From a virus (Duplodnaviria > Caudoviricetes), in IMG/VR virus record IMGVR_UViG_3300028048_000068, positions 32,001 through 96,000 of that record: a stretch of 64,000 bases of DNA; one strand, 5' to 3'. Below the pieces are notes generated by a model. The model was given only the letters and a program-made list of their open reading frames with translations. It made no database searches and was not told the origin of the DNA. Shown piece by piece: positions 1-10,931 of the stretch (position 1 is its first letter; each line of letters begins with the position of its first letter). The translations under genes were made by a program, and so were the position numbers.

Positions 1-8
1 TATAATCC

Positions 9-34
9 AAAAAAAAGTGGGGATATACCCCACT
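9..34 (-). terminator. Rho-independent terminator after 45..398
   Basis: AGTGGGG-TATAT-CCCCACT hairpin followed by a T-run on the minus strand. Confidence 0.75.
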
Positions 35-44
35 CAACCGATAA

Positions 45-398
45 CTACTTATCGTGGACTTCCGCACGCTTGCGTCTGATTTCCTCATCACGCTTACGCT
101 TGCGTTCCTTTTCTTCGGCTTTCTCTTTTGCCTTGCGTTCCTTTTCCGCAAGGTTGTGGACGTAGTCCTCTGCGATGGCGTAACCATCGTAAGGCTCAAG
201 TCCCTTGTTTGCACCCGTAGGCACTTTGAAGTTGATAACGATGAAGTCCTCGTTACCTTCGCAACCAACACAAGGGATTGCGATTTCATTGGACTTTACT
301 CGTAAAACTTCTTCGCCACTTTCGTAGAGAAACTGCGAAACCTTTTCGAGGAAGTTAGTTCTGATTAACTCACGTTCTACTTTTCTTGATACTGCCAT
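45..398 (-). CDS. Hypothetical early protein with charged C-terminal helix; paralog of 5163..5522
   Basis: RBS AGGTAGGTG and own TTGACA/TATAAT promoter; strong similarity to 5163..5522 (shared EEVLRVKSNEIAIP.VGCEGNEDFIV...KVPTGANKG.EPYDGY). Confidence 0.85.
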   Translation of the reverse strand: MAVSRKVERELIRTNFLEKVSQFLYESGEEVLRVKSNEIAIPCVGCEGNEDFIVINFKVPTGANKGLEPYDGYAIAEDYVHNLAEKERKAKEKAEEKERKRKRDEEIRRKRAEVHDK

Positions 399-445
399 AA
401 GACACCTACCTTTCTTTTATCTCTTTATCTTACAATAGAATTATA

Positions 446-610
446 TCACTCGTTGATATACTTGTCAAGCGATTTTTTAAAATCTCTGCGAAATTTTTTA
501 TGCTGTTCTTTTTTATCACTGCGGATAGAGTTAAGGCGTGCGTGCTCACAATAATAGTGGCGTGCAAATTTATCTTCAAAAGTTTCTTTTTTGTATGCGT
601 TGCGTCTCAT
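446..610 (-). CDS. Small basic hypothetical protein, 54 aa (MRRNAYKKETFEDKFARHYYCEH...)
   Basis: Read manually (below ORF-track cutoff); RBS AAGGAGGT, upstream promoter. Confidence 0.7.
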   Translation of the reverse strand: MRRNAYKKETFEDKFARHYYCEHARLNSIRSDKKEQHKKFRRDFKKSLDKYINE

Positions 611-735
611 TGGCTTACCTCCTTACAATATAATTATACTGATATTTTGAGATAATTCAAGTTCTTTAAAAAGTACAAGATTTAGGAAAGTTTGTCTTGA
701 CTAACTCGCGCGGCGACCCGGGCCAGAAAAGTTTG

Positions 736-753
736 TTGTTAATTTATTAACAA
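736..753. promoter_or_regulatory. Rex-type operator TTGTTAA-TTTA-TTAACAA (representative copy)
   Basis: Exact match to the clostridial Rex consensus TTGTTAA-N4-TTAACAA; other copies at 1099, 1895, 2208, 3741, 4239, 5067, 7639, 7753, 7788. Confidence 0.7.
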
Positions 754-769
754 GCGACCCGGGCACGCA

Positions 770-818
770 CGAACATATGTTCGTATGGACCGGCCGCGAA
801 TGTGCGAACATATGTTCG
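770..818. promoter_or_regulatory. Two LexA (SOS/Cheo) boxes CGAACATATGTTCG at 770-783 and 805-818 (representative copies)
   Basis: Firmicute LexA consensus CGAAC-N4-GTTCG; other copies at 1930, 2888, 3780, 5102, 5140, 5824, 5864, 6311, 6654, 7773 and ~7842. Confidence 0.75.
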
Positions 819-841
819 TTTTCGTGTAAATAAAAAAAGGA

Positions 842-1030
842 CTATTCGTCCTCTTCTTCATACCATATCTTTTTTATTGTTAAGTGGTCAAGTAAATCTG
901 TTGCATCATGTATGATATAGTCTGCTACGCACTCGTTAATCATTTCCATATCATCATTTTCAAAATCTTCCATACTTTCTGCCCAACAAGTTAAATCGAA
1001 ATCAATTGTAAGTTCAATATGTCTAACCAT
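842..1030 (-). CDS. Small acidic hypothetical protein
   Basis: RBS AAGGAGA, own promoter. Confidence 0.75.
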   Translation of the reverse strand: MVRHIELTIDFDLTCWAESMEDFENDDMEMINECVADYIIHDATDLLDHLTIKKIWYEEEDE

Positions 1031-1160
1031 TTATTTTCTCCTTTCTTTATCTAATATAATTATACTTATTTACTTTTGTTTGTCAATACCTTTTTTAAAA
1101 GTTATTTTTTTCACAAACTTTGGACCGGCCCGCGGTTGACGATAACAAAGACGTGGTAAA

Positions 1161-1802
1161 TTACCACATCTTTGTTTCGAAGTTAAATCCGTCTAACTTT
1201 TCACACTCAAGCAAAATTTTGTATTCAATTTCGCTATCTGAAAGTGCCGTATGTTCTTCGACAAATTCATTGTCAAAGAAATAACGAGCGACTATTTCTG
1301 TGGTATATCTGTTGGCGTTGTTCTGTGTCAGATAACCATTAGACTTGCAAAACTCTCTATATGTTTTATCTTTCTTCAATACGTTGCGAGAGAGTGCGAG
1401 AATATCGTGAAATTCTGTGCCATAAGGGAAGAAATATCTATACTTTGAGGAAGTGATATATCTCTGTGTAGTTGCGAGTGAACAATAATCAAAACGGCAA
1501 TTATACGCATAAACTTTTGTGATGTTGTTTTCTTTCATTATATGGCGAAGTGTCCACATTATGTTTCTGAAAGAAGTTAGAGTTCTCGAACCATTTTTTA
1601 TTTCTTTCCAATATATTGGGATTTTCTCTGCAAAATATGCCGAAGCCATAAGTTCTTTATCGCAGAAAACATCTGCATTTACGAACGAATGTTTGGAATA
1701 GATTGTTCCATTGTAGTCTGCGACTATAAAACCGCAATCATATACAAGTGCGTCATCGAGTGAATTTGTTGTTTCCGTATCTATTATGAGTATCTTTTCC
1801 AT
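1161..1802 (-). CDS. DEDDh 3'-5' exonuclease (DnaQ-like)
   Basis: ExoI IIDTET, ExoII AYNCRFD, ExoIII HTALSD. Confidence 0.85.
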   Translation of the reverse strand: MEKILIIDTETTNSLDDALVYDCGFIVADYNGTIYSKHSFVNADVFCDKELMASAYFAEKIPIYWKEIKNGSRTLTSFRNIMWTLRHIMKENNITKVYAYNCRFDYCSLATTQRYITSSKYRYFFPYGTEFHDILALSRNVLKKDKTYREFCKSNGYLTQNNANRYTTEIVARYFFDNEFVEEHTALSDSEIEYKILLECEKLDGFNFETKMW

Positions 1803-1950
1803 TTTGTTTTTTCCTTTCTCTTGATTACAATATGATTATAAAGGATTTGTTTTAGGAAGTCAACCCTTTTTTATGTTTTTATATCGAAACAATTGTGTTA
1901 ATTTTTTAACAAGGCGGCCCGGGCAAAACCGAACGAGTGTTCGGCTTAGT

Positions 1951-2136
1951 TTAATCAAACTCAACATAATTATCTTCGTCTAATTGATATTCTTCAACCC
2001 ATACTTGTGAATTATTATAACCAATACCACCATTGCGATTAATTTCATCTCTTTGAAATTCTGCCATTACTTTTGAACGAGAACCCCCAAGAATAACAAC
2101 GTTATCAAGTACGCCCATAACTATATAAAGTGTCAT
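1951..2136 (-). CDS. Small hypothetical protein (MTLYIV...VEEYQLD type)
   Basis: RBS AAGGAGA before ATG at 2136; own promoter. Confidence 0.7.
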   Translation of the reverse strand: MTLYIVMGVLDNVVILGGSRSKVMAEFQRDEINRNGGIGYNNSQVWVEEYQLDEDNYVEFD

Positions 2137-2272
2137 TTTTATTTTCTCCTTTCCTTTGATATATACATTATAAACTAACATATTTATAAAGTCAAGAACT
2201 TTTTAAAAAGTTAATTTTTTAACAATCGGCGACCCGGGCGAACTTGACGCATAAAATATATGCGTCAATTCG

Positions 2273-2458
2273 TTAGTCGATTTCCTTTATAAATTCGTCT
2301 CTTTCCCATTTGAAAAAACTATTGATTAAAAATCTACAATCACAACAATCACATACTGCAATAGATTTTTTGATTTCTTCTGTTTCGGTATATGCATCTT
2401 CATCAATAATATCCTCGATGGAATAATCTGTACTGTTACATTTAGGACATTTAACCAT
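2273..2458 (-). CDS. Small zinc-ribbon protein
   Basis: CPKC...CDCC; RBS AAGGAGA. Confidence 0.75.
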   Translation of the reverse strand: MVKCPKCNSTDYSIEDIIDEDAYTETEEIKKSIAVCDCCDCRFLINSFFKWERDEFIKEID

Positions 2459-2475
2459 TTTTTATTATCTCCTTT

Positions 2476-2619
2476 CTATAAAATATGTTCATAAGTCATA
2501 TCATATTCATTACTATTTTGGTTGAGTTCTTTTAAAAGTGTTTGGGCGTCATTTTCATTTATAAATATCCAAAATATCCCTGTATCTTCTGTATGGTAAA
2601 CTATATAAACACCATTCAT
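2476..2619 (-). CDS. Small hypothetical protein, 47 aa (MNGVYIVYHTEDTG...)
   Basis: Read manually; RBS AAGGAGA; operon-like spacing. Confidence 0.65.
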   Translation of the reverse strand: MNGVYIVYHTEDTGIFWIFINENDAQTLLKELNQNSNEYDMTYEHIL

Positions 2620-2621
2620 TT

Positions 2622-2762
2622 TTAATTCTCCTTTCTAATATAAACTTTAACAATACGATAATGTTTTGAATTTAAATTACTATATTTCATATAAGTATTA
2701 TAAAAAGAATATGAGCGATATATAATTTTATGAGTGCGTCTATGTTCGATTATAAATTCCAT
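2622..2762 (-). CDS. Small basic hypothetical protein (MEFIIEHRRTHK...)
   Basis: RBS AAGGAG before ATG at 2762; own promoter. Confidence 0.65.
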   Translation of the reverse strand: MEFIIEHRRTHKIIYRSYSFYNTYMKYSNLNSKHYRIVKVYIRKEN

Positions 2763-2914
2763 TGTATTACTCCTTTCCATTACTCCTTTCTTTTGATACC
2801 TAATTATAACAATAATTTTAAATTCTGTCAACACTTTTTTATGTACTAAAATCCGTACAATCGCGCCCGGTCGTGCCCGGGCCCGCGCGAACATACGTTC
2901 GATTTATGAGTACG

Positions 2915-2937
2915 AAAAAACGGACTTGCGTCCGTTT
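2915..2937 (-). terminator. Terminator after the tRNA-like RNA and its trailer
   Basis: AAACGGAC-GCAA-GTCCGTTTTTT on the minus strand. Confidence 0.75.
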
Positions 2938-2973
2938 CTTCTGAAAGGAGGTGAAAACAATGACTCATAAAAG

Positions 2974-3053
2974 TGGTGGAGTAGACGAAGATTCGAACTT
3001 CGTTCGCTATGCCCTTGGGAGGGATATTCATAGTGGACACCTTGCCCTACCCC
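2974..3053 (-). ncRNA. 80-nt tRNA-like RNA with alanine identity (tmRNA tRNA-like-domain architecture, no canonical anticodon arm)
   Basis: GGGGTAG/CTACTCC acceptor stem with G3:U70, discriminator A plus encoded CCA; T-arm CGAAG-TTCGAAT-CTTCG; 13-nt D-loop-like segment GGCAAGGTGTCCA. Confidence 0.7.
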
Positions 3054-3095
3054 ATAAGGTTGTGGTTTTAAGGGATAACCACAAACCCTTTTGTA

Positions 3096-3425
3096 TTAAC
3101 CGAGAAAGTAACCTTTCTGCGTTCCTTTTCCCTTAACCTTTACATCGACAACCTTTACATCCTCGACTTTCTTGGCGAGTGCAGAAGCCTTGTTTACGGA
3201 AATTCCGCAGAGTTCCGCAATCTTGCTTGCGAGCATTGGCTCATCTGTAAGCACTCTCGAAATTGCTTCGATTATTGGTGCGTTAGCAATCTGTGTCTTG
3301 CTTGGACGCTCTGCCCTCTTGGCGTTGCGCACGTCGAGTTTCTCGATTGCTTCTGTGGCGAAAGTAACCATATCCTCTGTGATAGTTCCGTTGATAACTG
3401 CGTTGTAGAATTCTCTCTGTGTCAT
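3096..3425 (-). CDS. Putative winged-helix protein; paralog of 8717..9064
   Basis: MTQREFYNAVINGTITED...ASKIAELCGISVNKASALA...VKVKGKGTQKGYF; RBS AAAGGA. Confidence 0.8.
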   Translation of the reverse strand: MTQREFYNAVINGTITEDMVTFATEAIEKLDVRNAKRAERPSKTQIANAPIIEAISRVLTDEPMLASKIAELCGISVNKASALAKKVEDVKVVDVKVKGKGTQKGYFLG

Positions 3426-3468
3426 AGTACATTTTCCTTTCTTTTTTAACTCTTTAACTTGTGTCTTT

Positions 3469-3728
3469 ATTATAACTGATTTGTTTGGGTTTGTCAAGAC
3501 TTTTTTAGAACTTTTTTAATTTTTTATTCTGTTCTTTTCTATTCCTCTTGACAATTATATTGTAGCACACTTTTTAGTTTGTGTCAATATCTTTTTTATG
3601 TTTTTTTATGTTTTTCTCGCTTATACTCGCGAGGTCAAGGGAAAGGTGTTTCTGTGTCCACGCGTTGTTTCTGTTTCTTCCTTTCCCTCTGACAATTATA
3701 GTATAGCAAAAATTTAATAATCTGTCAA
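3469..3728 (-). promoter_or_regulatory. Three tandem sigmaA promoters
   Basis: TTGACA-17-TATACT (3728-3700), TTGACA-17-TACAAT (3587-3559), TTGACA-17-TATAAT (3497-3469). Confidence 0.8.
3616..3693 (-). ncRNA. Candidate small structured RNA or leader with A-rich loop
   Basis: Starts right after a promoter; 13-14 bp stem closing a 33-nt loop with three GAAAC motifs; second hairpin; no credible ORF. Confidence 0.45.
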
Positions 3729-3798
3729 CACTTTTTTCATTAGTTATTTTTTTAACAATCGCGCCCGGGCCAACGAGTGCGAACACTCGTTCGCACCC

Positions 3799-4140
3799 TT
3801 ATGCAATTGCATTAGCAACAACCTTGAGAAGTACATTTTTATACCACTCTGCATCGTGTACAATTTTGTATACATTTGCCTTATATGGTATCTGTGCCGT
3901 TACATATTTATTATGATGCCATATTTCTTTTTCAAAAGTTCTGTCAACAGTACCAACAATTTCTGCGATACCTCTGCGCACAAGCATCATCATAAGCTGT
4001 GAATTATGGGAAGCAACATACCATTTTTCGCCAAGTTCAGAAGCCGTAAATTCTTTATCAAGGAAACCATTCTTTTCAATTGCGTTGAGTGCCATTCTAA
4101 CATATCTCATATCATATTTCAGTTCTCTAATTGTTCTCAT
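3799..4140 (-). CDS. Hypothetical protein, possibly winged-helix-like
   Basis: RBS GAGGT before ATG at 4140; own promoter. Confidence 0.75.
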   Translation of the reverse strand: MRTIRELKYDMRYVRMALNAIEKNGFLDKEFTASELGEKWYVASHNSQLMMMLVRRGIAEIVGTVDRTFEKEIWHHNKYVTAQIPYKANVYKIVHDAEWYKNVLLKVVANAIA

Positions 4141-4296
4141 TGTGTACCTCACTTTCATTTTTTTATTTACTATCTCTTGACAATGTAAGTATAGCAAATA
4201 TATATGTATGTGTCAATACTTTTTTAAAAATAATTTAAAAGTTATTTTTTTAACAATTGACCGGCCGCGCGTATAAATATACAAAAAAGAGATTGT

Positions 4297-4734
4297 TTAT
4301 GCAATCTCTTTCAGTATCTCGATAATGTTATCCACATCGAACGCTGTACCTTTCCATTCTTTTCTGTTTGGTTCTTCATCATCGAAAAGTATGCCGTTTA
4401 TATCGTCAACCATCGTTGATTTTGGTGTTCCGTACTTTCCAATTTTAATTTCATCGAAGTGTACGCTTTTCAGATGATTGTTAAGCCATTCGATTTTAGC
4501 GTTGGTTACTTTTATATCGTAACTTTCGCTTGCGTTCTTTGCTAACCAAGAAACGATACCGATTTTATGTCCGTTTCTCTGTGCCTTGTTAAGAAGTCTT
4601 GCGAGTGTTGCAAGTCTTACAAGTGGTTCTGCGTCTGTGTATGGGCTTGCATCTTCATTTCTGAGTTTTGGGAGCCAATTTTCTACTGCGTAGAGATTAG
4701 CGATTGTTCCGTCCATATCGAAGTAAATTGTCAT
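4297..4734 (-). CDS. HAD-superfamily phosphatase (5'(3')-deoxyribonucleotidase-like)
   Basis: Motif I FDMDGT, conserved K, motif IV LFDD. Confidence 0.85.
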   Translation of the reverse strand: MTIYFDMDGTIANLYAVENWLPKLRNEDASPYTDAEPLVRLATLARLLNKAQRNGHKIGIVSWLAKNASESYDIKVTNAKIEWLNNHLKSVHFDEIKIGKYGTPKSTMVDDINGILFDDEEPNRKEWKGTAFDVDNIIEILKEIA

Positions 4735-4801
4735 TTTGTTTTTCCTCTCTTTCTTTCTTTGTATCTATATTATAGACTACTTTTGAGAGTTTGTCAATAG
4801 T

Positions 4802-4978
4802 TTATTTTGTTTTTTTATGTTTTTTAGCAATATCTCCAAGCATAAATATTATATCCATTGTTTTGACAATATCATATTTCTTATGTATTTCGCCAAAACA
4901 TTTAGGGCATACAATAAAATCTACATATCCAAAAGACTCATCCCAACTAGTTTCTCTTCTACAAATAGCACACTTCAT
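4802..4978 (-). CDS. Small zinc-finger protein
   Basis: CAIC...CPKC; RBS AAGGAGA. Confidence 0.7.
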   Translation of the reverse strand: MKCAICRRETSWDESFGYVDFIVCPKCFGEIHKKYDIVKTMDIIFMLGDIAKKHKKTK

Positions 4979-5133
4979 TTTGTTTTCTCCTTTCTTATTA
5001 CAATACAATTATAAACTATGAATAATCGGAAGTCAACCCCTTTTTATGTTTTTCTTTGTATTTATGTTGTTAATTTTTTCACAAGTGCGCCCGGGCCATG
5101 TCAAACATATGTTCGTTTTAATTTTGGGAATAA

Positions 5134-5159
5134 AAAAGACGAACTTTCGTTCGTCTTTT
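5134..5159 (-). terminator. Terminator whose stem is itself a LexA-type box
   Basis: AAAAGACGAAC-TTTC-GTTCGTCTTTT; CGAAC-N4-GTTCG at 5140-5153. Confidence 0.65.
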
Positions 5160-5162
5160 CGT

Positions 5163-5522
5163 CTATTCTCCTTTTTCGGAAATTACTTTCTTTTTTTCTC
5201 TAATCTCTTTGTCTTTTCGGATTTTTTCCGCTTTCTTTTTTTCGGCTTCAATTTTTTTCTGTTCTTTTTCGGCAACTTTCATTTCATAATCTTGTGCCAT
5301 TTCATAACCGTCATATGGTTCTGTGCCTTTGTTTGCACCCGTTGGAACTTTTACGGTTACAACGATGAAATCTTCGTTGCCCTCGCACCCTACAACGGGA
5401 ATTGCAATCTCATTAGATTTTACTCTCAAAACTTCTTCATCTTTTTCCAAGAAATTATCAATAATTTTCTGAAGATAATCGTTTCTTAAAATTTCTCTTT
5501 CTACTTTTCGGGATATTGCCAT
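5163..5522 (-). CDS. Hypothetical early protein; paralog of 45..398
   Basis: High similarity to 45..398; RBS AAGGAGA. Confidence 0.85.
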   Translation of the reverse strand: MAISRKVEREILRNDYLQKIIDNFLEKDEEVLRVKSNEIAIPVVGCEGNEDFIVVTVKVPTGANKGTEPYDGYEMAQDYEMKVAEKEQKKIEAEKKKAEKIRKDKEIREKKKVISEKGE

Positions 5523-5598
5523 TGTCAAATTCTCCTTTCTTTTACTTTCTATAATTATTATAGCAAAATTTTAAAAATTTGTCAAATTATTTTTTGTT

Positions 5599-5742
5599 CT
5601 ATTTTAGGAACAAAGGGATATAAAACATAATAGGAATTGAAAGAAGAAGTAAAAATCCAAAAATTCCTCTTTCGGTTTTTTCCTCAAATACTGCACAAGT
5701 AATAGCGAATATGAACCAAAGTATAAGTATAATCCAAAGCAT
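5599..5742 (-). CDS. Small membrane protein with two TM helices
   Basis: Two hydrophobic stretches; RBS AAGGAGA; own promoter. Confidence 0.7.
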   Translation of the reverse strand: MLWIILILWFIFAITCAVFEEKTERGIFGFLLLLSIPIMFYIPLFLK

Positions 5743-5880
5743 TGTTTTTATCTCCTTTCTTTTGATATACACATTATACAATAGATATAGAGGAAAGTCA
5801 ACCACCTAAACGAACATTAAGAACGAACGTATGTTCGTCTTTGCGCGCCCGGGCGACTCGGCGCGAACGTATGTTCGCAC

Positions 5881-6042
5881 CTACATCCATCTATCCATAT
5901 TGCGTTTAGTTACCTTTTCTCTTTTCTTTCTTTTATCTGTATAAACACCTGTTCTAAAAGGTATATCCTGTATTGGCTTAGTCTGCCTTACTATGTCAAT
6001 ACCCTTTATTGTTCCTACTGTTATATTCTTCTTCTTTGACAT
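5881..6042 (-). CDS. Small very basic protein, 53 aa (MSKKKNITVG...PFRTGVYTDKRKKREKVTKRNMDRWM)
   Basis: Read manually; RBS GGAGG; starts 2 nt after the stop of 6045..6197. Confidence 0.65.
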   Translation of the reverse strand: MSKKKNITVGTIKGIDIVRQTKPIQDIPFRTGVYTDKRKKREKVTKRNMDRWM

Positions 6043-6044
6043 CT

Positions 6045-6197
6045 CTATGCCCTCCCAAGATACTCAAGTCTGCGTGGCACTGTGACAATGTACCATCTCA
6101 TCACATCGGATTTACATTTACGCATCCATCTATTGCGGTCGTTCTCCTTAATGATACCGAGAACTATCATTCTGTTTACCATTTCCATCTTTGTCAT
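6045..6197 (-). CDS. Small basic hypothetical protein, 50 aa (MTKMEMVNRMIVLG...)
   Basis: Read manually; RBS GAGAGGT; upstream promoter. Confidence 0.65.
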   Translation of the reverse strand: MTKMEMVNRMIVLGIIKENDRNRWMRKCKSDVMRWYIVTVPRRLEYLGRA

Positions 6198-6333
6198 TTG
6201 TCTTTACCTCTCTTTCTTTATCTGTCTATATTATAGTCGATGCAGAAAACAATTGCAATACCTTTTTATGTTTTTCTTTGTATTTTTATACACTCACGGC
6301 CCGGGCCGACCGAACATATGTTTAATTAGAAAG

Positions 6334-6533
6334 AATAAAAATGAGGGCTTGCGCCCTCTGCGGTACCTCTACAGCGATGTATGCCCGTTTTGCCTATTCC
6401 AACCGCTACGGGATTTGGTTCACACTTATATACCGCAACGCTGAGACCCTTGCGGTGGTGGGACTTTATCAGCAAGACTTATCCGTTCTGTGTAGAACTC
6501 CCTCTTCGGTTCGGCTTGCTTCCCTCACCTTGT
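6334..6533 (-). ncRNA. Candidate ~200-nt structured non-coding RNA
   Basis: Own promoter TTGACA-17-TATAAT (6568-6540); GC-richer than flanks; several hairpins; terminator GAGGGC-GCAA-GCCCTC; no RBS-led ORF. Confidence 0.6.
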
Positions 6534-6701
6534 ATCTATATTATAGTATGAATTTGATTATTTGTCAACACTTTATTTTGTTTTTCTTTGTATTTATTTC
6601 GTTAATAAATTATTAACGAAGTCGCGCCCGGTCAATTTTAACCCGGACCGGCGCGAACGTACGTTTGATGAAGAAATAAAAAAATAAGCCTTTCGGCTTA
6701 T

Positions 6702-6890
6702 TTACTGAAGTTCAAATTCTTCGATTTCATAAAGAGGAATTCCTTCTTCATCTTCGCAGAACCAAGGATGCTCATATTCCTGATTTTCTGCTATCCACTT
6801 TTCTGCATCTTCTCTTGAGGCATATACTGCCTGTGCTTCTCTGCAACCATATTCATCATCTACCATCATGTTTACTACGTATACCTTCAT
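6702..6890 (-). CDS. Small acidic hypothetical protein (MKVYVV...YEIEEFEL type)
   Basis: RBS AAGGAGA; terminator at 6678-6703. Confidence 0.8.
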   Translation of the reverse strand: MKVYVVNMMVDDEYGCREAQAVYASREDAEKWIAENQEYEHPWFCEDEEGIPLYEIEEFELQ

Positions 6891-7014
6891 TGTTCTATCT
6901 CCTTTCAATCTCTTAGCTTGTCTATATTATACTCTTTATAGCTTGCATTGTCAAGCTCTATCTTGTACTTCGTTTGATATAATCAGTTCGACTCGAAGGT
7001 CGAGGGTCGAGGGT

Positions 7015-7485
7015 CTAGTGCAGACCCTCGATTACCCTTATCAGCTGAGTCTCGGTGGTGAATGTGGCTCTTTCAAACTTGAGCTGATATGTGATACCGT
7101 TCACTATCATATCCGGACCTTCCCACCACTTCAGTGTGTCCTTTTCCCAAGTCTGTCCGAAGTATTCAGCCATTACATATTCAAAATCGTGGCCTTTATT
7201 GCTACCATATACAGGTGTCAGCATTTCGTGAACTTCTTCGAAGTGTTCAATGGTGCAGACCTTGAAAGCACCAGCCTTAATCATAGCCTTTTTCTCGTCG
7301 GCTGTAGGTCTAAAGCGCATTGATACAGCGCCGCCCTTGCTCTTAGCGGCTCTATCGAGCACACAGCCCAGGCCGTTGAACACGCTCTCGTATGCCCATA
7401 CGAAACCATCACGCGCGAACCCGTCAAAATGACGCTCGCATGCTTCGAAAGTCTTGTAATTGTCAACCATAGTTCTAAGTTCCAT
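7015..7485 (-). CDS. Hypothetical protein, possible PD-(D/E)xK-like fold
   Basis: RBS AAGGAGGT, own promoter; GHDFE...GPDMIVNGITYQLK. Confidence 0.7.
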   Translation of the reverse strand: MELRTMVDNYKTFEACERHFDGFARDGFVWAYESVFNGLGCVLDRAAKSKGGAVSMRFRPTADEKKAMIKAGAFKVCTIEHFEEVHEMLTPVYGSNKGHDFEYVMAEYFGQTWEKDTLKWWEGPDMIVNGITYQLKFERATFTTETQLIRVIEGLH

Positions 7486-7813
7486 TTTAGTACCTCCTTG
7501 CTATGGTTAGATTATAAGCCCAACGGCTATGTTTTGTCAATTGAAAAAATCAATAATAATAGCAGAGTATTATTAATAAAATCAATAACACAAAATCAGT
7601 AAAATCTATTGACAAACACATAAAATTGTGATTGGACTTTGTGATATTTTTAACAAGGGATCTCAAAATATTTGAGGCGACCAAAAGAATATTTGTTCTT
7701 TTTTGTTCCCTAAAAATCTTTTTGTTAACCTAAAGAATATTTGTTCGGATTGTTGTTTATTTATTAACAATCCGAATGTATGTTCGCTTGTGAAACTTTT
7801 AACAAGTGGATCC

Positions 7814-7897
7814 CATATGAACATATGAACATATGAACATATAAACATATGTTCGACCATACATACATTAACATATGTTCATATGTTCATATGTTCA
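7814..7897. repeat. Tandem 8-bp GAACATAT repeats arranged as an inverted pair
   Basis: (CATATGAA)3-CATATAAA-CATATGTTCG, then AACATATGTT-(CATATGTT)2-CA. Confidence 0.85.
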
Positions 7898-8085
7898 CTG
7901 ATGAAGAGGCACTCTCATACACGCCCTCGGGCGTTTCCTCTGACGGATCCCGATGGTATGGTTAACAATATGTTCTTCATTAAGTACAAGATTGGTAGTT
8001 GACTTATGCAACCGACGAGAGTACAATCTAACCATCAGATACAGACACAGACCGCAAGGCGGTCATCACAGAGAGGAGACAGACA

Positions 8086-8319
8086 ATGTATAACGACCTT
8101 ATCAGAGAAGCAACAGCAGAAGAAATGGCAATCTATCATAGAGTCGAAGACGTACTCGATACACTGACCGAAGACGAAGAAACACGTTTCATCGAAACCG
8201 TCGGAGACAGAGTATATGACTATACTCGTAGCAAAGCAATTTATCAGAGAGCATACAGACTCGGAAAAAAATACGGTTTCACCGTTGAAGAACTCGAAAC
8301 TTGGTACTGCATCGACTAA
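8086..8319 (+). CDS. Hypothetical protein; the only credible plus-strand gene in the early region
   Basis: Promoter TTGACT-17-TACAAT (~7999-8027), RBS GAGGAG, terminator at 8329-8358. Confidence 0.8.
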   Translation: MYNDLIREATAEEMAIYHRVEDVLDTLTEDEETRFIETVGDRVYDYTRSKAIYQRAYRLGKKYGFTVEELETWYCID

Positions 8320-8376
8320 GTCGAAACAATAAAGTCCCTTATAAGGGACTTTTTTATTGCTTTATTCTCTGACGCT

Positions 8377-8460
8377 AAAATTTGCCCTCTGACGCTCAAA
8401 ACTTAATCAATTGATAGATTATACCATTTCAATAGTTTTGACCGTCAGAGGGCAAAATTT
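8377..8460. repeat. 27-bp near-perfect inverted repeat with ~30-bp spacer
   Basis: AAAATTTGCCCTCTGACGCTCAAAACT ... AGTTTTGACCGTCAGAGGGCAAAATTT. Confidence 0.8.
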
Positions 8461-8716
8461 GACCTGTGAGGGGTATGCCCATGTGAAAGTACACCATAAT
8501 ATCCCGGCCCTGTTTTTATCAATGGCCCTCTCTTTTTTAGAAAAGTAGTACCTAAAACGGTTTTAGATTTTCCGAAAGCAGTTACTTAAACCTACCGCCC
8601 TGGTAGGAATTAAAATCCTAAAATATACCCCGGCTTGCTTATGGGTTAGAGGCCTTTAACTCTCCGGTCAGACCCTATGTCCTGGTACAAAATATCCACG
8701 AAATAAAAAAATAGAC

Positions 8717-9064
8717 CTACACGTAGTAGGCCTTTCTTTTACCTTTATTTTTAACCTTCACATCGCAGCTTTTAATTTTCCCCTCTCGTATAAGGTTCGT
8801 ACAAATAGCAGTGAGCCTTTGACGCGTCAACGTTGAGCCAATTTTCTCCGCCAACTCATCAATTTGAATTGGCTCCTCCGTTAGCGCCTCACAAATTAAT
8901 TCCTCGTAACGCTTATTTTCGACGTAATTTGCACTCTCCTTACTCACTTGATTCGCTCGCGCGCTACGTTCGTCCAGCTTCGCCAATTCAGCCTTGCAGT
9001 CTTCAATTAGCTCTTCCGTAATATTCCCAGCTATAACCGCTTCAAGTCTTTGTCTCCTAGTCAC
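8717..9064 (-). CDS. Putative winged-helix protein; paralog of 3096..3425
   Basis: Shared N-terminal MT.R....AVI.G.ITE and C-terminal VKVK.KG..K.Y. Confidence 0.8.
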   Translation of the reverse strand: MTRRQRLEAVIAGNITEELIEDCKAELAKLDERSARANQVSKESANYVENKRYEELICEALTEEPIQIDELAEKIGSTLTRQRLTAICTNLIREGKIKSCDVKVKNKGKRKAYYV

Positions 9065-9237
9065 TTAACTCTTCCTCCTTTTTCAATTGCTTCATTAAAT
9101 TTGTTGTACTTGCAAGTCTCACATTCCGTCTGTAGTTCATCCTCAATCGGCTTGATAGTAATACATTGCCAATTTTCTTTATCTGCATTACCATTGTAAA
9201 CTTCTATTATTGACTCAATCTTTACTTCTCCGTCCAT
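9061..9237 (-). CDS. Small hypothetical protein, 58 aa
   Basis: Read manually; fills the gap and overlaps the next start (GTGA). Confidence 0.5.
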   Translation of the reverse strand: MDGEVKIESIIEVYNGNADKENWQCITIKPIEDELQTECETCKYNKFNEAIEKGGRVK

Positions 9238-9451
9238 AAAACTCTTCCAACTCTACAAACTTCTCCAAATACCATATGGCTTTCTTTATATCTTCCAATC
9301 CATTTTTATTTTTGTGTCTGTAAATGTACTTAAATGCATTACAGATACAGAAATTTTTAACTGCCTCTGCGCCCTGCGTTTCAACCATTACGTCGATTGA
9401 TTCATACTTGCCTGTCGCATAGTGGGGAGGATGATTTACGTAATCTGTCAT
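9215..9451 (-). CDS. DUF3310 / T7 gp1.7-like putative nucleotide kinase
   Basis: DYVNHPPHY...GAEAVKNFCICNAFKY..R...KNGLEDIKKAIWYL signature. Confidence 0.85.
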   Translation of the reverse strand: MTDYVNHPPHYATGKYESIDVMVETQGAEAVKNFCICNAFKYIYRHKNKNGLEDIKKAIWYLEKFVELEEFYGRRSKD

Positions 9452-9611
9452 TGACTACCTCCTTTTTTTATATAGGTTTAACTTACTTACTATAATAATT
9501 ATAACTGAATTTTAAAAAATTATCAAATTTTCATGACTAACGTATAAGTCCTCGCGAAAATTTGACTTCTGCGCGCGTCCGTGTTATACTTAAACTATGG
9601 AGGGCACATAA

Positions 9612-10931
9612 ATGCAGAATAGACTTAAACTTAATTTTGATTTAGAAACTGCGGCTGAACGAGCACAATTTATTCAAACTTATCTGGTCCAGTTTCCTGA
9701 TTTGACTAGTTCTGAAGCCTCCACAATTGCGGATTATTTGTTATGGGGCAAGGATGGCAGTGGCGCGCCTATAGGTAAGGACACCGGATTGGAAACGCGC
9801 TGGACGAAAACAAACGAAGCTGAATCGCTCGATGCGGTTTTGGAGAATCCTGCCATGAGTAATGCGCAATTGTATACGTTAAATGATGCGGTTGTTTTAA
9901 AAAAGAACAGAGACGTTTTTAATAGAGAAGAAGCAAGAAAAGAAGCACCGGAATTTCTGCGGCCGACCTTTGAGGAACTGTGGAAGACGATTGACGAGAT
10001 TGAGCTAGAGATTAACTTTTATGAAGAGAGGATTGGAAAAAGAGAGAAACCGCCAAGAGATGAGTTAGTTAAGCGTTTTACTGACGAAGAAGTTGAACGT
10101 ATACGCGCGCGAAGCCAAAAACTTAATCAGTATGGATATTTGAAGTTGAGACATAGGATAAGAGAGTTGAGAACAGAACAGTTCACAATTAGAGACTCTT
10201 ACCGCTCAACTTTTAATATAACCCAATCAATCTATGCGCCAAAGCATAGAAGTTTTGTTTTTGACTGCGACGTGGAGGTACTGCCGCTAGGTGTAAAAGA
10301 AGGGGCAACTGGAGATATAGTTTTCGATATAAACTTTGACCCGCGCGCACTCGACGAAGAACAGCTACGTTTGATAAGTAGGTTGGTCTGGAAGAAAAAG
10401 AATTGTCAAAAGCCAAAGAATGAAATTTTTGACTTTAGAGATTTAGAAGCGGTTTATCAGTTGTATTTATTTAAAGAAGAATTTGATGAACGGCTTGAAC
10501 AAGTTAAACTAGACCACATTGTAGAGAACAACTTACGCAACCTACTTGATACACTTGATTTCTATGAACAAATGGCAGACTTAACTGACGTACAGCGTGA
10601 AATTTTGAAGCTAAAAGAACAAAAACAGAAAAACGCAGATATAGCGGGGTATATTAATAAGAAATATGGAAAGAGCTATACTGCGAATTATATAAGTACT
10701 ATATTTAAGCAGAAAATTATAGTGAAGATTAACGAGGCCGCGCAACTACATCAAGATACAATTGAAAATTGTTTTTTCGAAGAGAACTTTAAAAAATGTG
10801 GTTGCTGTGGTAGGATTTTACTTTTAGATGGAAGAAATTGGGTTAAGAAAACCAGAAGTAAAGACGGATTCCAGAGCAGATGTAAAAGATGCGAAAGGGA
10901 ACTCCGAAAAAAGAAAAAGGAGGATGGGTAA
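9612..10931 (+). CDS. Putative phage transcription regulator (sigma region-4-like HTH plus C-terminal Zn finger)
   Basis: LTDVQREILKLK...NADIA...YISTIF; CGCC...CKRC. Confidence 0.55.
   Translation: MQNRLKLNFDLETAAERAQFIQTYLVQFPDLTSSEASTIADYLLWGKDGSGAPIGKDTGLETRWTKTNEAESLDAVLENPAMSNAQLYTLNDAVVLKKNRDVFNREEARKEAPEFLRPTFEELWKTIDEIELEINFYEERIGKREKPPRDELVKRFTDEEVERIRARSQKLNQYGYLKLRHRIRELRTEQFTIRDSYRSTFNITQSIYAPKHRSFVFDCDVEVLPLGVKEGATGDIVFDINFDPRALDEEQLRLISRLVWKKKNCQKPKNEIFDFRDLEAVYQLYLFKEEFDERLEQVKLDHIVENNLRNLLDTLDFYEQMADLTDVQREILKLKEQKQKNADIAGYINKKYGKSYTANYISTIFKQKIIVKINEAAQLHQDTIENCFFEENFKKCGCCGRILLLDGRNWVKKTRSKDGFQSRCKRCERELRKKKKEDG

Follow-up and report, generated by a model that had tools for sequence, protein, structure and literature searches.

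The subject of this report is a repeated intergenic module in the early region of a large bacteriophage, found in a 64,000-base window (bases 32001–96000) of a single 136,627-bp IMG/VR virus record (IMGVR_UViG_3300028048_000068) that CheckV rates as complete; positions below are those of the window unless given as genome positions. At its left end the window carries, on the minus strand, an array of about 20 small cassettes, each with its own consensus sigma-A promoter and ribosome-binding site ahead of one to three small genes or an RNA, and often ending in an intrinsic terminator. We read this array as the early ("host takeover") region of a rumen Clostridia phage, driven by host RNA polymerase, and in 11 of its spacers we found a module composed of a LexA-type box, a GC core, a Rex-type box, an A-tract and the promoter. 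We favour, with slightly better than even confidence, a reading in which these three-palindrome junctions act as joints for the exchange of cassettes and also as predicted docking sites for the host repressors LexA and Rex.

Promoter array and junction modules

The minus strand of positions 1–9700 holds nine perfect (12/12) matches to TTGACA-16/17/18-TATAAT and eight 11/12 matches. Near-consensus sigma-A promoters (at most one mismatch) form two convergent early blocks in the genome, one on the plus strand at 4.9–26.4 kb and one on the minus strand at 31.4–41.5 kb (genome positions), with modules confined to the minus-strand block and lacking from the other. Allowing one mismatch, the LexA-type box CGAAC-N4-GTTCG occurs 13 times in the window (nine exact, four with one mismatch) against 0.65 expected, and 12 of these copies lie at 770–7786; genome-wide there are 15, with 14 in the array at genome 31818–39786. 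The GC core CCCGGG is similarly restricted, with nine copies in the window against 1.9 expected, all within 717–6305, and 11 genome-wide, all at genome 31943–38305, within 6.4 kb of the array. Rex-type boxes (TTGTTAA-N4-TTAACAA, zero to two mismatches) begin at 736, 1895, 2208, 3741, 5067, 7639, 7753 and 7788 in the window, the one at 736 being perfect, three others having one mismatch and four having two; a further copy at 4239 has three. As a specificity control, we counted 17 Firmicute operator consensi in the array and in the rest of the genome, revealing 14 LexA boxes in the array against 0.08 expected from the rest of the genome and 11 Rex boxes against 0.08, with no enrichment in the array for the 15 other consensi (CodY, cre, NrdR, ARG, Fur, PerR, CtsR, Spo0A, DnaA and others).

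An earlier note on this DNA had described about 11 minus-strand spacers between 700 and 6670 that follow one grammar. Every element of that grammar was recovered where the note had placed it, far above chance, and the elements do occupy that span; the array itself is larger than the note allowed (Table 1). To define the modules, we aligned the spacers on their −35 hexamers. As the note had also remarked, some copies lack a part (spacers 4266, 2238 and 1130 have no LexA box). The Rex slot is filled by another palindrome in spacers 5837, 2860 and 6621 (the last with N7 spacing), seven promoters are bare of any module (7540, 6954, 5585, 4797, 3587, 3497 and 468), and an A-rich block upstream of the −35 hexamer is common to several of the aligned spacers. 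The parts also keep characteristic distances, with 5–6 or 9–10 bp from LexA box to CCCGGG, 4–8 bp from CCCGGG to Rex-type box, and clusters at 12–13, 20, 30–31 and 42–43 bp from Rex-type box to −35, a roughly helical pattern that the shared ancestry of the module copies may have inflated. Hairpins resembling intrinsic terminators, and separate from the promoter, precede 6–7 of the 11 modules in the window.

The phage genome encodes its own sigma factor, a portal, a PolC-like DNA polymerase, a RecJ-like exonuclease, topoisomerase II subunits, a DnaB-type helicase and an anaerobic ribonucleotide reductase (NrdD), and no tyrosine-integrase (Phage_integrase) or Resolvase domain was found in the whole 136.6 kb; from this combination we take it to be, apparently, a large virulent phage of an anaerobe. 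It likewise encodes no LexA or Rex DNA-binding domain. A run search placed its DNA in bovine gut metagenome runs from several studies, and 89% and 62% of the sampled words of the region were present in two bovine metatranscriptome runs. Compared by blastn with 50,697 phage records, the array gave only matches shorter than 100 bp. The sole match to the composite module in one scan of a bacterial genome collection was a related phage-like contig binned with a Lachnospiraceae metagenome-assembled genome, which is a weak hint of a Lachnospiraceae host because phage contigs are often mis-binned. A sigma-factor-like gene divergent from the array (Table 1) is consistent with a switch from host sigma-A to the phage sigma factor.

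Cassette exchange among related phages

With the exonuclease gene of the array (1161–1802) we retrieved 73 viral loci, of which 66 (L-numbers below) were kept after duplicate removal, and examined 20 kb of each, 1.25 Mb in total. All 66 loci possess a dense one-directional promoter array, and their element content differs widely, with 32 Rex-type boxes and no CCCGGG in L006, 13 CCCGGG and one Rex-type box in L013, and 17 CCCGGG, 10 LexA boxes and, in place of any Rex-type box, other palindromes in L016. The most widely shared element is the GC core, with consensus cGCCCGGGCg over 301 unique copies.

Gene content and order were followed by tblastn of the 21 array proteins of the window against these relatives. 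The closest relatives share a loosely conserved gene backbone. Seven small cassettes (g6702, g4802, g3799, g2622, g2476, g2273 and g1951) are absent in all or nearly all relatives, and which relative is closest differs by cassette. Thus g5599 is 96% identical in L003 and 61% in L001, g842 is 97% identical in L007 and L008 and 77% in L003, and g4297 is 97% identical in L001 and L003 and 46% in L008, L009 and L015; in L003, g842 and g446 are swapped. The short gene g446 is 89–98% identical in L038 and L041 despite an exonuclease identity of only 44%, and its homology block starts just past the −10 of the promoter that drives it and stops at the −10 of the following one. That following promoter (440–468, TTGACA-17-TATAAT) lies within the final codons and the stop codon of g446, so that gene and downstream promoter move as a unit.

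The boundaries of shared sequence fall at recurring places. Where blastn blocks include a gene, their upstream ends fall into four clusters: at the 5' edge of the LexA box (5877 in four loci, 1942–1949 in four, 3793–3796 in two), at the GC core (1924–1927 in five loci, 5856 and 3772), inside the −35/−10 region and at the ribosome-binding site. In the junction ahead of the exonuclease gene (module 11), aligned in 12 phages, the part upstream of the GC core comes in two types, holding either a LexA box or a hairpin unrelated to it, and two promoter-proximal types (1 and 2) occur downstream of the Rex-type box. All four combinations exist, namely LexA with type 1 in the window, L001 and L011, LexA with type 2 in L003, hairpin with type 1 in L004 and hairpin with type 2 in L007, a distribution that requires exchange within the conserved segment of about 40 bp that spans the GC core and Rex-type box.

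These patterns support modules and promoters as the joints at which cassettes are gained, lost, replaced and re-ordered in relatives, most events being insertions, deletions or replacements rather than re-orderings, and they fit short-homology rather than site-specific recombination. The earlier note had offered a shufflable array, in which the module is both recombination homology and a portable regulatory unit, with breakpoints in related genomes as the way to check it. Cassettes that are absent, swapped or mosaic across the 66 loci, with breakpoints at the module, support that reading, and in the relatives the gains, losses, swaps and mosaics are bounded by modules and promoters.

Possible readers of the palindromes

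Among the relatives we counted 177 exact LexA boxes, all with N4 spacing, and at most three copies at any other spacing from 0 to 12. Over 160 unique copies the centre of the box reads R (155/160), then mostly T, then mostly A, then Y (156/160), i.e., R-N-R-Y, and with this centre the box agrees with the published LexA (Cheo) consensi, CGAACRNRYGTTYC for Gram-positive bacteria and the Firmicute palindrome TACGAACATATGTTCGTA (PMC2248561). The exact consensus is kept in phages whose exonucleases are only 42–52% identical. These properties bear on a purely structural account, in which the palindromes are nucleic-acid structures (terminator or attenuator hairpins, or cruciforms) that act without a sequence-specific protein and would form the stem-loop portion of a terminator/promoter cassette of the promoter-early stem-loop (PeSL) type. 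Several LexA-type palindromes do score as terminator-like hairpins (5134–5159, 5822–5839, 804–819 and 1929–1944), and PeSL stem-loops are GC-rich terminators (PMC2839356). The arms of the box are however invariant rather than covarying, the spacing is strictly N4 around a preferred "loop" sequence, and most boxes come after a separate, complete intrinsic terminator. Bases flanking the box are complementary in 54 cases against 38 expected over the 160 unique copies, only a slight excess and without hairpin-type covariation; a flank covariation first judged by eye in the window (7/8 complementary) largely vanished in this larger set. Because of its invariant arms, fixed spacing and preferred "loop", the LexA-type box fits a protein-read operator better than a structure-only hairpin, and we consider the structural account very improbable.

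The Rex-type box of the array matches TTGTTAANNNNTTAACAA, the Clostridial Rex consensus confirmed in Clostridium thermocellum by DNA affinity purification sequencing (DAP-seq) and electrophoretic mobility-shift assay (EMSA) (PMC8457756). Its arms occur in the clade predominantly at N4 spacing (157 copies), with 36 copies at N7 and 19 at N11. In L064–L072 nearly every early promoter is preceded by GCCCGGCCCGCGA and then by GTTAAC-N5-7-TTAAC abutting the −35 hexamer, and the presence of this arrangement in such distant relatives indicates that the grammar of GC core, TTAAC element and promoter predates the Rex-like form of the window. In L016 the Rex slot holds GCACTTTAAAGTGC-type palindromes in many spacers (e.g., 10719, 13151 and 12317), and its promoters lie between TTCGTCA ... 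TGACGA, a candidate match to the Spo0A 0A-box TGNCGAA.

A third host operator appears in the relatives. The heat-shock repressor HrcA of the host has CIRCE as its operator, and perfect CIRCE elements (TTAGCACTC-N9-GAGTGCTAA, 18/18 specified bases), unexpected by chance in 1.25 Mb, occur at L002:1403, L006:4873, L008:3052 and L067:352, each with a different spacer between its arms and all in the head control regions of arrays; the window itself has none. Those of L008 and L067 adjoin TGAATA...TATTCA repeats resembling ARG boxes, and the GCACTTTAAAGTGC palindrome of L016, also tried as a CIRCE, failed to match at up to four mismatches. The finding of CIRCE elements raises the prior that the LexA- and Rex-type boxes are true host sites.

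We also describe here a new phase lock between terminator and LexA box. A T-run of at least five ends 10–14 nt before 33% of LexA boxes, compared with 2% of random positions, with peaks at 13 and 10 nt. A hairpin-plus-T-run terminator precedes 75 of 171 unique LexA boxes, with a modal distance of 16 nt from stem to box and 15–20 nt in 57 of the 75; modules 9, 13 and 1 (the last with a one-mismatch box) provide examples in the window (Table 1). Because at least 25 different hairpin sequences show this spacing (judged by eye), it was not inherited from one terminator.

The order of the junction (terminator stem, LexA box about 16–19 nt further on, GC core, Rex-type box, A-rich upstream element and −35) suggests a mechanism, which is the tentative part of the reading that we favour. 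Host LexA docked just behind the terminator would be a roadblock (transcriptional roadblocks are reviewed in PMC10310618), halting any polymerase that reads through while its active site is in the U-tract, so that cassettes are insulated from one another, and Rex in the zone of the upstream element would dampen the promoter that follows. LexA cleavage upon DNA damage, or Rex release at a high NADH/NAD+ ratio, would loosen the insulation and raise early expression, and the GC core may simply be the recombination joint. In its fullest form the scheme makes the modules repressor-gated insulators: LexA would render termination efficient at each terminator, and damage or a reduced NADH/NAD+ pool would lead to the whole early array being read through and boosted. 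A virulent phage would in this way have built two stress repressors of its host into the layout of its take-over region. Relatives would have wired in HrcA as a third repressor via CIRCE, and the modules would remain exchange joints throughout. Since the boxes lie outside classical repressor positions, the roadblock and upstream-element steps are of our own inferring, and we regard this full insulator scheme as possible though doubtful.

An alternative is that the palindromes are operators for early phage proteins (e.g., g3096/g8717), which would silence the cassettes or insulate them at the time of takeover by the phage sigma factor, the likeness to LexA and Rex sites being convergence or mimicry. 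The g3096/g8717 family is a candidate reader in the phage itself, as its profile matches MarR/winged-helix structures (best 1ku9, E 8e-6), its AlphaFold2 model (pLDDT 90) shows a winged-helix fold closest to that of PadR/MarR-type regulators, and three to five paralogues lie inside the array of relatives. The AT-rich palindrome in the Rex slot moreover varies by lineage (TGTAC-N8-GTACA, the N7 form, GCACTTTAAAGTGC in L016 and GTTAAC-N5-7-TTAAC in L064–L072), as co-evolving phage operators would, and the GC core is unlike all 17 Firmicute operator consensi tested. Yet the winged-helix family and the boxes do not go together from locus to locus; we looked for an association with box counts in the 20-kb loci and found no clean one, as L040, L047, L059 and L031 have boxes and no family member, L029, L035 and L037 have a family member and no boxes, and the family shows no clear split into subfamilies. 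The LexA box also holds the host consensus and R-N-R-Y centre at exonuclease identities as low as those given above, and perfect CIRCE elements show that the clade carries real host operators, and we judge a phage-encoded reader unlikely. We also considered g5163/g45 as a reader of the GC core, for which the link to GC-core-rich spacers was suggestive but confounded by phylogeny, with L017 and L019 as counter-examples, and the AlphaFold2 model of g5163/g45 matched no DNA-binding fold.

The boxes might instead be decoys. In this account 14 LexA and about 10 Rex sites of high affinity per genome, multiplied by replication, would titrate the repressors to the benefit of the phage and turn on the host SOS response (RecA, repair) and the Rex regulon (fermentation, NAD+ regeneration), with effects in cis secondary. 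The sites are indeed numerous, of consensus grade and mostly outside promoter cores, and SOS-controlled induction would be of no obvious use to a virulent phage; a pure sponge, however, needs no fixed order, no 16-nt phase lock to terminators and no clustered −35 distances, and the sites are gathered in one early array rather than spread genome-wide. We consider decoys alone a distinctly unlikely explanation.

Returning to exchange joints with predicted host docking sites, several observations weigh against that reading. LexA box centres lie mostly 50–110 bp upstream of the −35, neither overlapping the promoter nor just downstream of it, and Rex-type boxes lie 12–43 bp upstream, which are not classical repressor positions. 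The N7 and N11 copies make the case for Rex weaker than that for LexA, and the TTAAC-type element may have a phage-intrinsic reader because GTTAAC-N5-7-TTAAC abuts the −35 in distant relatives, quite apart from the several early winged-helix paralogues per phage with MarR/PadR-like profiles and folds. The fixed order and spacing may in part reflect common descent of module copies rather than function. As to exchange, a conserved regulatory motif of any kind would be expected to end homology blocks, and the closest relatives largely retain the order of their core genes. The earlier note's idea of a platform for two host repressors has the consensus identity, strict spacing, specific enrichment and clade conservation of the boxes behind it at the sequence level, and their place outside promoter cores against it. 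Docking by host LexA and Rex is in our view plausible, and gains strength from three results, namely the operator-grade statistics of the boxes, their phase lock to terminators and the presence of CIRCE in relatives. The note had set shuffling and repressor platform against each other as alternatives; the two are not mutually exclusive.

Cargo, control regions and known parallels

The cargo of the cassettes is as heterogeneous as had been noted before, comprising an exonuclease, a HAD-type deoxyribonucleotidase, Zn-ribbon peptides, a 47-residue hydrophobic peptide, winged-helix proteins and untranslated transcripts (Table 1). In the predicted fold of the 80-nt tRNA-like RNA, the 7-bp acceptor stem includes a G-U pair, the T arm has the loop UUCGAAU and the ACCA end is encoded, but there is no normal anticodon arm; only its upstream flank is conserved, in L010 and L008, and ARAGORN and Rfam (gathering thresholds) reported nothing over the window, this RNA included. 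A copy of the predicted untranslated transcript unit occurs in L011 at 90% identity.

Table 1. Coordinates of the early array, its modules and associated features (window positions)
Feature	Position	Strand	Content and context
Host-sigma-A-driven early cassette array	1–7950, on past the left end of the window (about 200 bases to ~2 kb)	minus	from promoter clustering and box confinement
Head control region	7639–7914	unstranded	Rex-type boxes 7639, 7753, 7788; LexA-type box 7773; palindrome 7806–7914
Module 1	6599–6667	minus	LexA-type box 6654–6667 (1 mismatch); CCGG cores 6628–6651; N7 palindrome TTCGTTAATAATTTATTAACGAA 6599–6621; after terminator 6682–6703, before promoter 6540–6568
Module 2	6300–6322	minus	degenerate LexA half-box and CCCGGG 6300–6305; after terminator 6343–6358, before promoter 6230–6258
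Module 3	5824–5877	minus	LexA box 5864–5877; CCCGGG 5848–5853; second LexA box 5824–5837 in Rex slot; before promoter 5773–5801
Module 5	5067–5159	minus	LexA box 5102–5115; CCCGGG 5090–5095; Rex-type box 5067–5084; before promoter 5008–5036
Module 5 terminator	5134–5159	minus	stem itself a LexA-type palindrome
Module 7	4239–4266	minus	GGCCGG core 4259–4266; weak Rex-type box 4239–4256; no LexA box; after terminator 4285–4312, before promoter 4188–4216
Module 8	3741–3793	minus	LexA box 3780–3793; CCCGGG 3764–3769; Rex-type box 3741–3758; before promoter 3700–3728
Module 9	2842–2940	minus	terminator 2915–2940; LexA box 2888–2901 (13 nt past T-run); GC cores 2867–2881; before promoter 2803–2831
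Module 9 Rex slot	2842–2860	minus	different palindrome, TGTAC-N8-GTACA
Module 10	2208–2269	minus	hairpin 2245–2269 replaces LexA box; CCCGGG 2233–2238; Rex-type box 2208–2225; before promoter 2167–2195
Module 11	1895–1943	minus	LexA box 1930–1943; CCCGGG 1918–1923; Rex-type box 1895–1912; before promoter 1835–1863 and exonuclease gene
Module 12	1100–1130	minus	GGCCGG core 1123–1130; degenerate Rex-type box; before promoter 1059–1086
Module 13 (double), first part	717–852 (whole module)	minus	terminator 838–852; LexA box 805–818; GGCCGG 788–795
Module 13, second part		minus	LexA box 770–783; CCCGGG 758–763; perfect Rex-type box 736–753; CCCGGG 717–722; before promoter 633–660
DnaQ-like exonuclease, 213 residues	1161–1802	minus	phrog_20187, E 7e-32
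NT5C/HAD-type 5'-deoxyribonucleotidase, 145 residues	4297–4734	minus	phrog_2643, E 9e-9; Pfam NT5C below cut-off
Winged-helix protein g3096	3096–3425	minus	paralogue g8717 at 8717–9064; others in relatives
g5163, conserved early protein	5163–5522	minus	paralogue g45 at 45–398
g446, highly mobile cassette, 54 residues	446–610	minus	from homology across relatives
tRNA-like RNA, 80 nt	2974–3053	minus	predicted fold; downstream of g3096
Predicted untranslated transcript unit, ~200 nt	6340–6540	minus	between promoter 6540–6568 and terminator 6343–6358
Phage sigma-factor-like gene	9612–10931	plus	phrog_5767; start of structural block, divergent from early array

Within the divergent control region at the head of the array, the near-perfect palindrome of about 90 bp at 7806–7914 consists of direct GAACATAT repeats (LexA half-sites with an 8-bp period), 93% of it conserved in L003. 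Its role could be that of a multi-site operator or of an element resembling an origin; a permissive Rfam scan matched this palindrome only, with plant and animal miRNA models that we discarded as spurious. Just left of the window, genome 31873–31893 carries an N7 variant, TTGTTAATAATTTATTAACAA, that is conserved and also present at L001:11712, L003:12240 and L015:11675; after it, beyond the g45 cassette in the downstream direction, come LexA boxes in pairs and tandem palindromes of the form AGTTAGAG-N2-CTCTAACT. The far end of the array thus seems to have a control region of a second kind. Between a bidirectional terminator (8331–8352) and g8717, a non-coding stretch of about 390 bp (8330–8720) contains a long-range inverted repeat, GTCAAATTTTGCCCTCTGACG / CGTCAGAGGGCAAATTTT, around a promoter-like site.

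The earlier note called the array the strongest candidate here for an undescribed system, which is too strong, as both halves of the picture have precedents. In T4-type phages, the hyperplastic regions harbour PeSL elements, which are mobile cassettes with a regulatory role (Arbiol et al. 2010, PMC2839356; Comeau et al. 2014, PMC4122927). Like the array, they repeat a junction in which an early promoter of host-sigma consensus is combined with an AT-rich tract upstream of it and with a stem-loop terminator (in the array, a terminator-like hairpin), they precede small ORFan genes in a plastic early region, and they bound insertions, deletions and replacements between related phages. The array differs in belonging to an unrelated phage group of Gram-positive anaerobes, in adding to the junction three sequence-defined palindromes at fixed spacing, two of them identical to host repressor operators, and in its stem-loop, which stands apart from the promoter rather than overlapping it, whereas the PeSL stem-loop is defined by structure and not by sequence. 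By these comparisons the array is best described as an analogue of PeSL and not a member of the T4-type family, given its PolC-like polymerase, its own sigma factor, its Firmicute-type promoters and ribosome-binding sites and the lack of any DNA match above 100 bp to known phages.

For host regulators acting on lytic phages, the nearest precedent is the Spo0A boxes of Bacillus phages phi29 and Nf, for which binding and repression were demonstrated by footprinting and in vitro transcription (Castilla-Llorente et al. 2009, PMC2731898). There, as predicted here, sites for a host global regulator lie near the early promoters of a phage classed as lytic, and the physiological state of the host gates early transcription. 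The regulators differ (Spo0A there, LexA and Rex predicted here), and so does the layout, phi29 having few boxes that overlap promoters and the array about 25, mostly outside promoter cores and in a repeated module. As for integron arrays, they too set unrelated small cassettes in a row with imperfect palindromic junctions; their cassettes are promoterless, whereas each cassette here has its own promoter, and an integron reading is ruled out by the promoter on every cassette and the lack of an integrase in the genome. LexA operators are otherwise familiar from temperate phages (coliphage 186 tum, CTXphi and GIL01), with one or two at the lysogeny switch. The array shares with them, as a prediction, host LexA as a direct regulatory input to the phage, and differs in having 14 boxes, distributed along an early array, in a genome without integrase or resolvase.

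If the boxes do bind LexA and Rex, a virulent phage would read or drain the DNA-damage and redox status of its host at about 25 sites, and one portable junction would unite regulation and genome plasticity in a single sequence element. The phase lock between terminator and LexA box further predicts repressor-assisted termination, which to our knowledge has not been described for LexA. The clade is abundant in cattle rumen samples, and its many natural variants of the module are a resource for taking apart insulator and promoter parts in synthetic work with Clostridia. Should the host proteins not bind the boxes, PeSL-type shuffling would still be extended from T4-like phages of Gram-negative hosts to unrelated phages of Gram-positive anaerobes.

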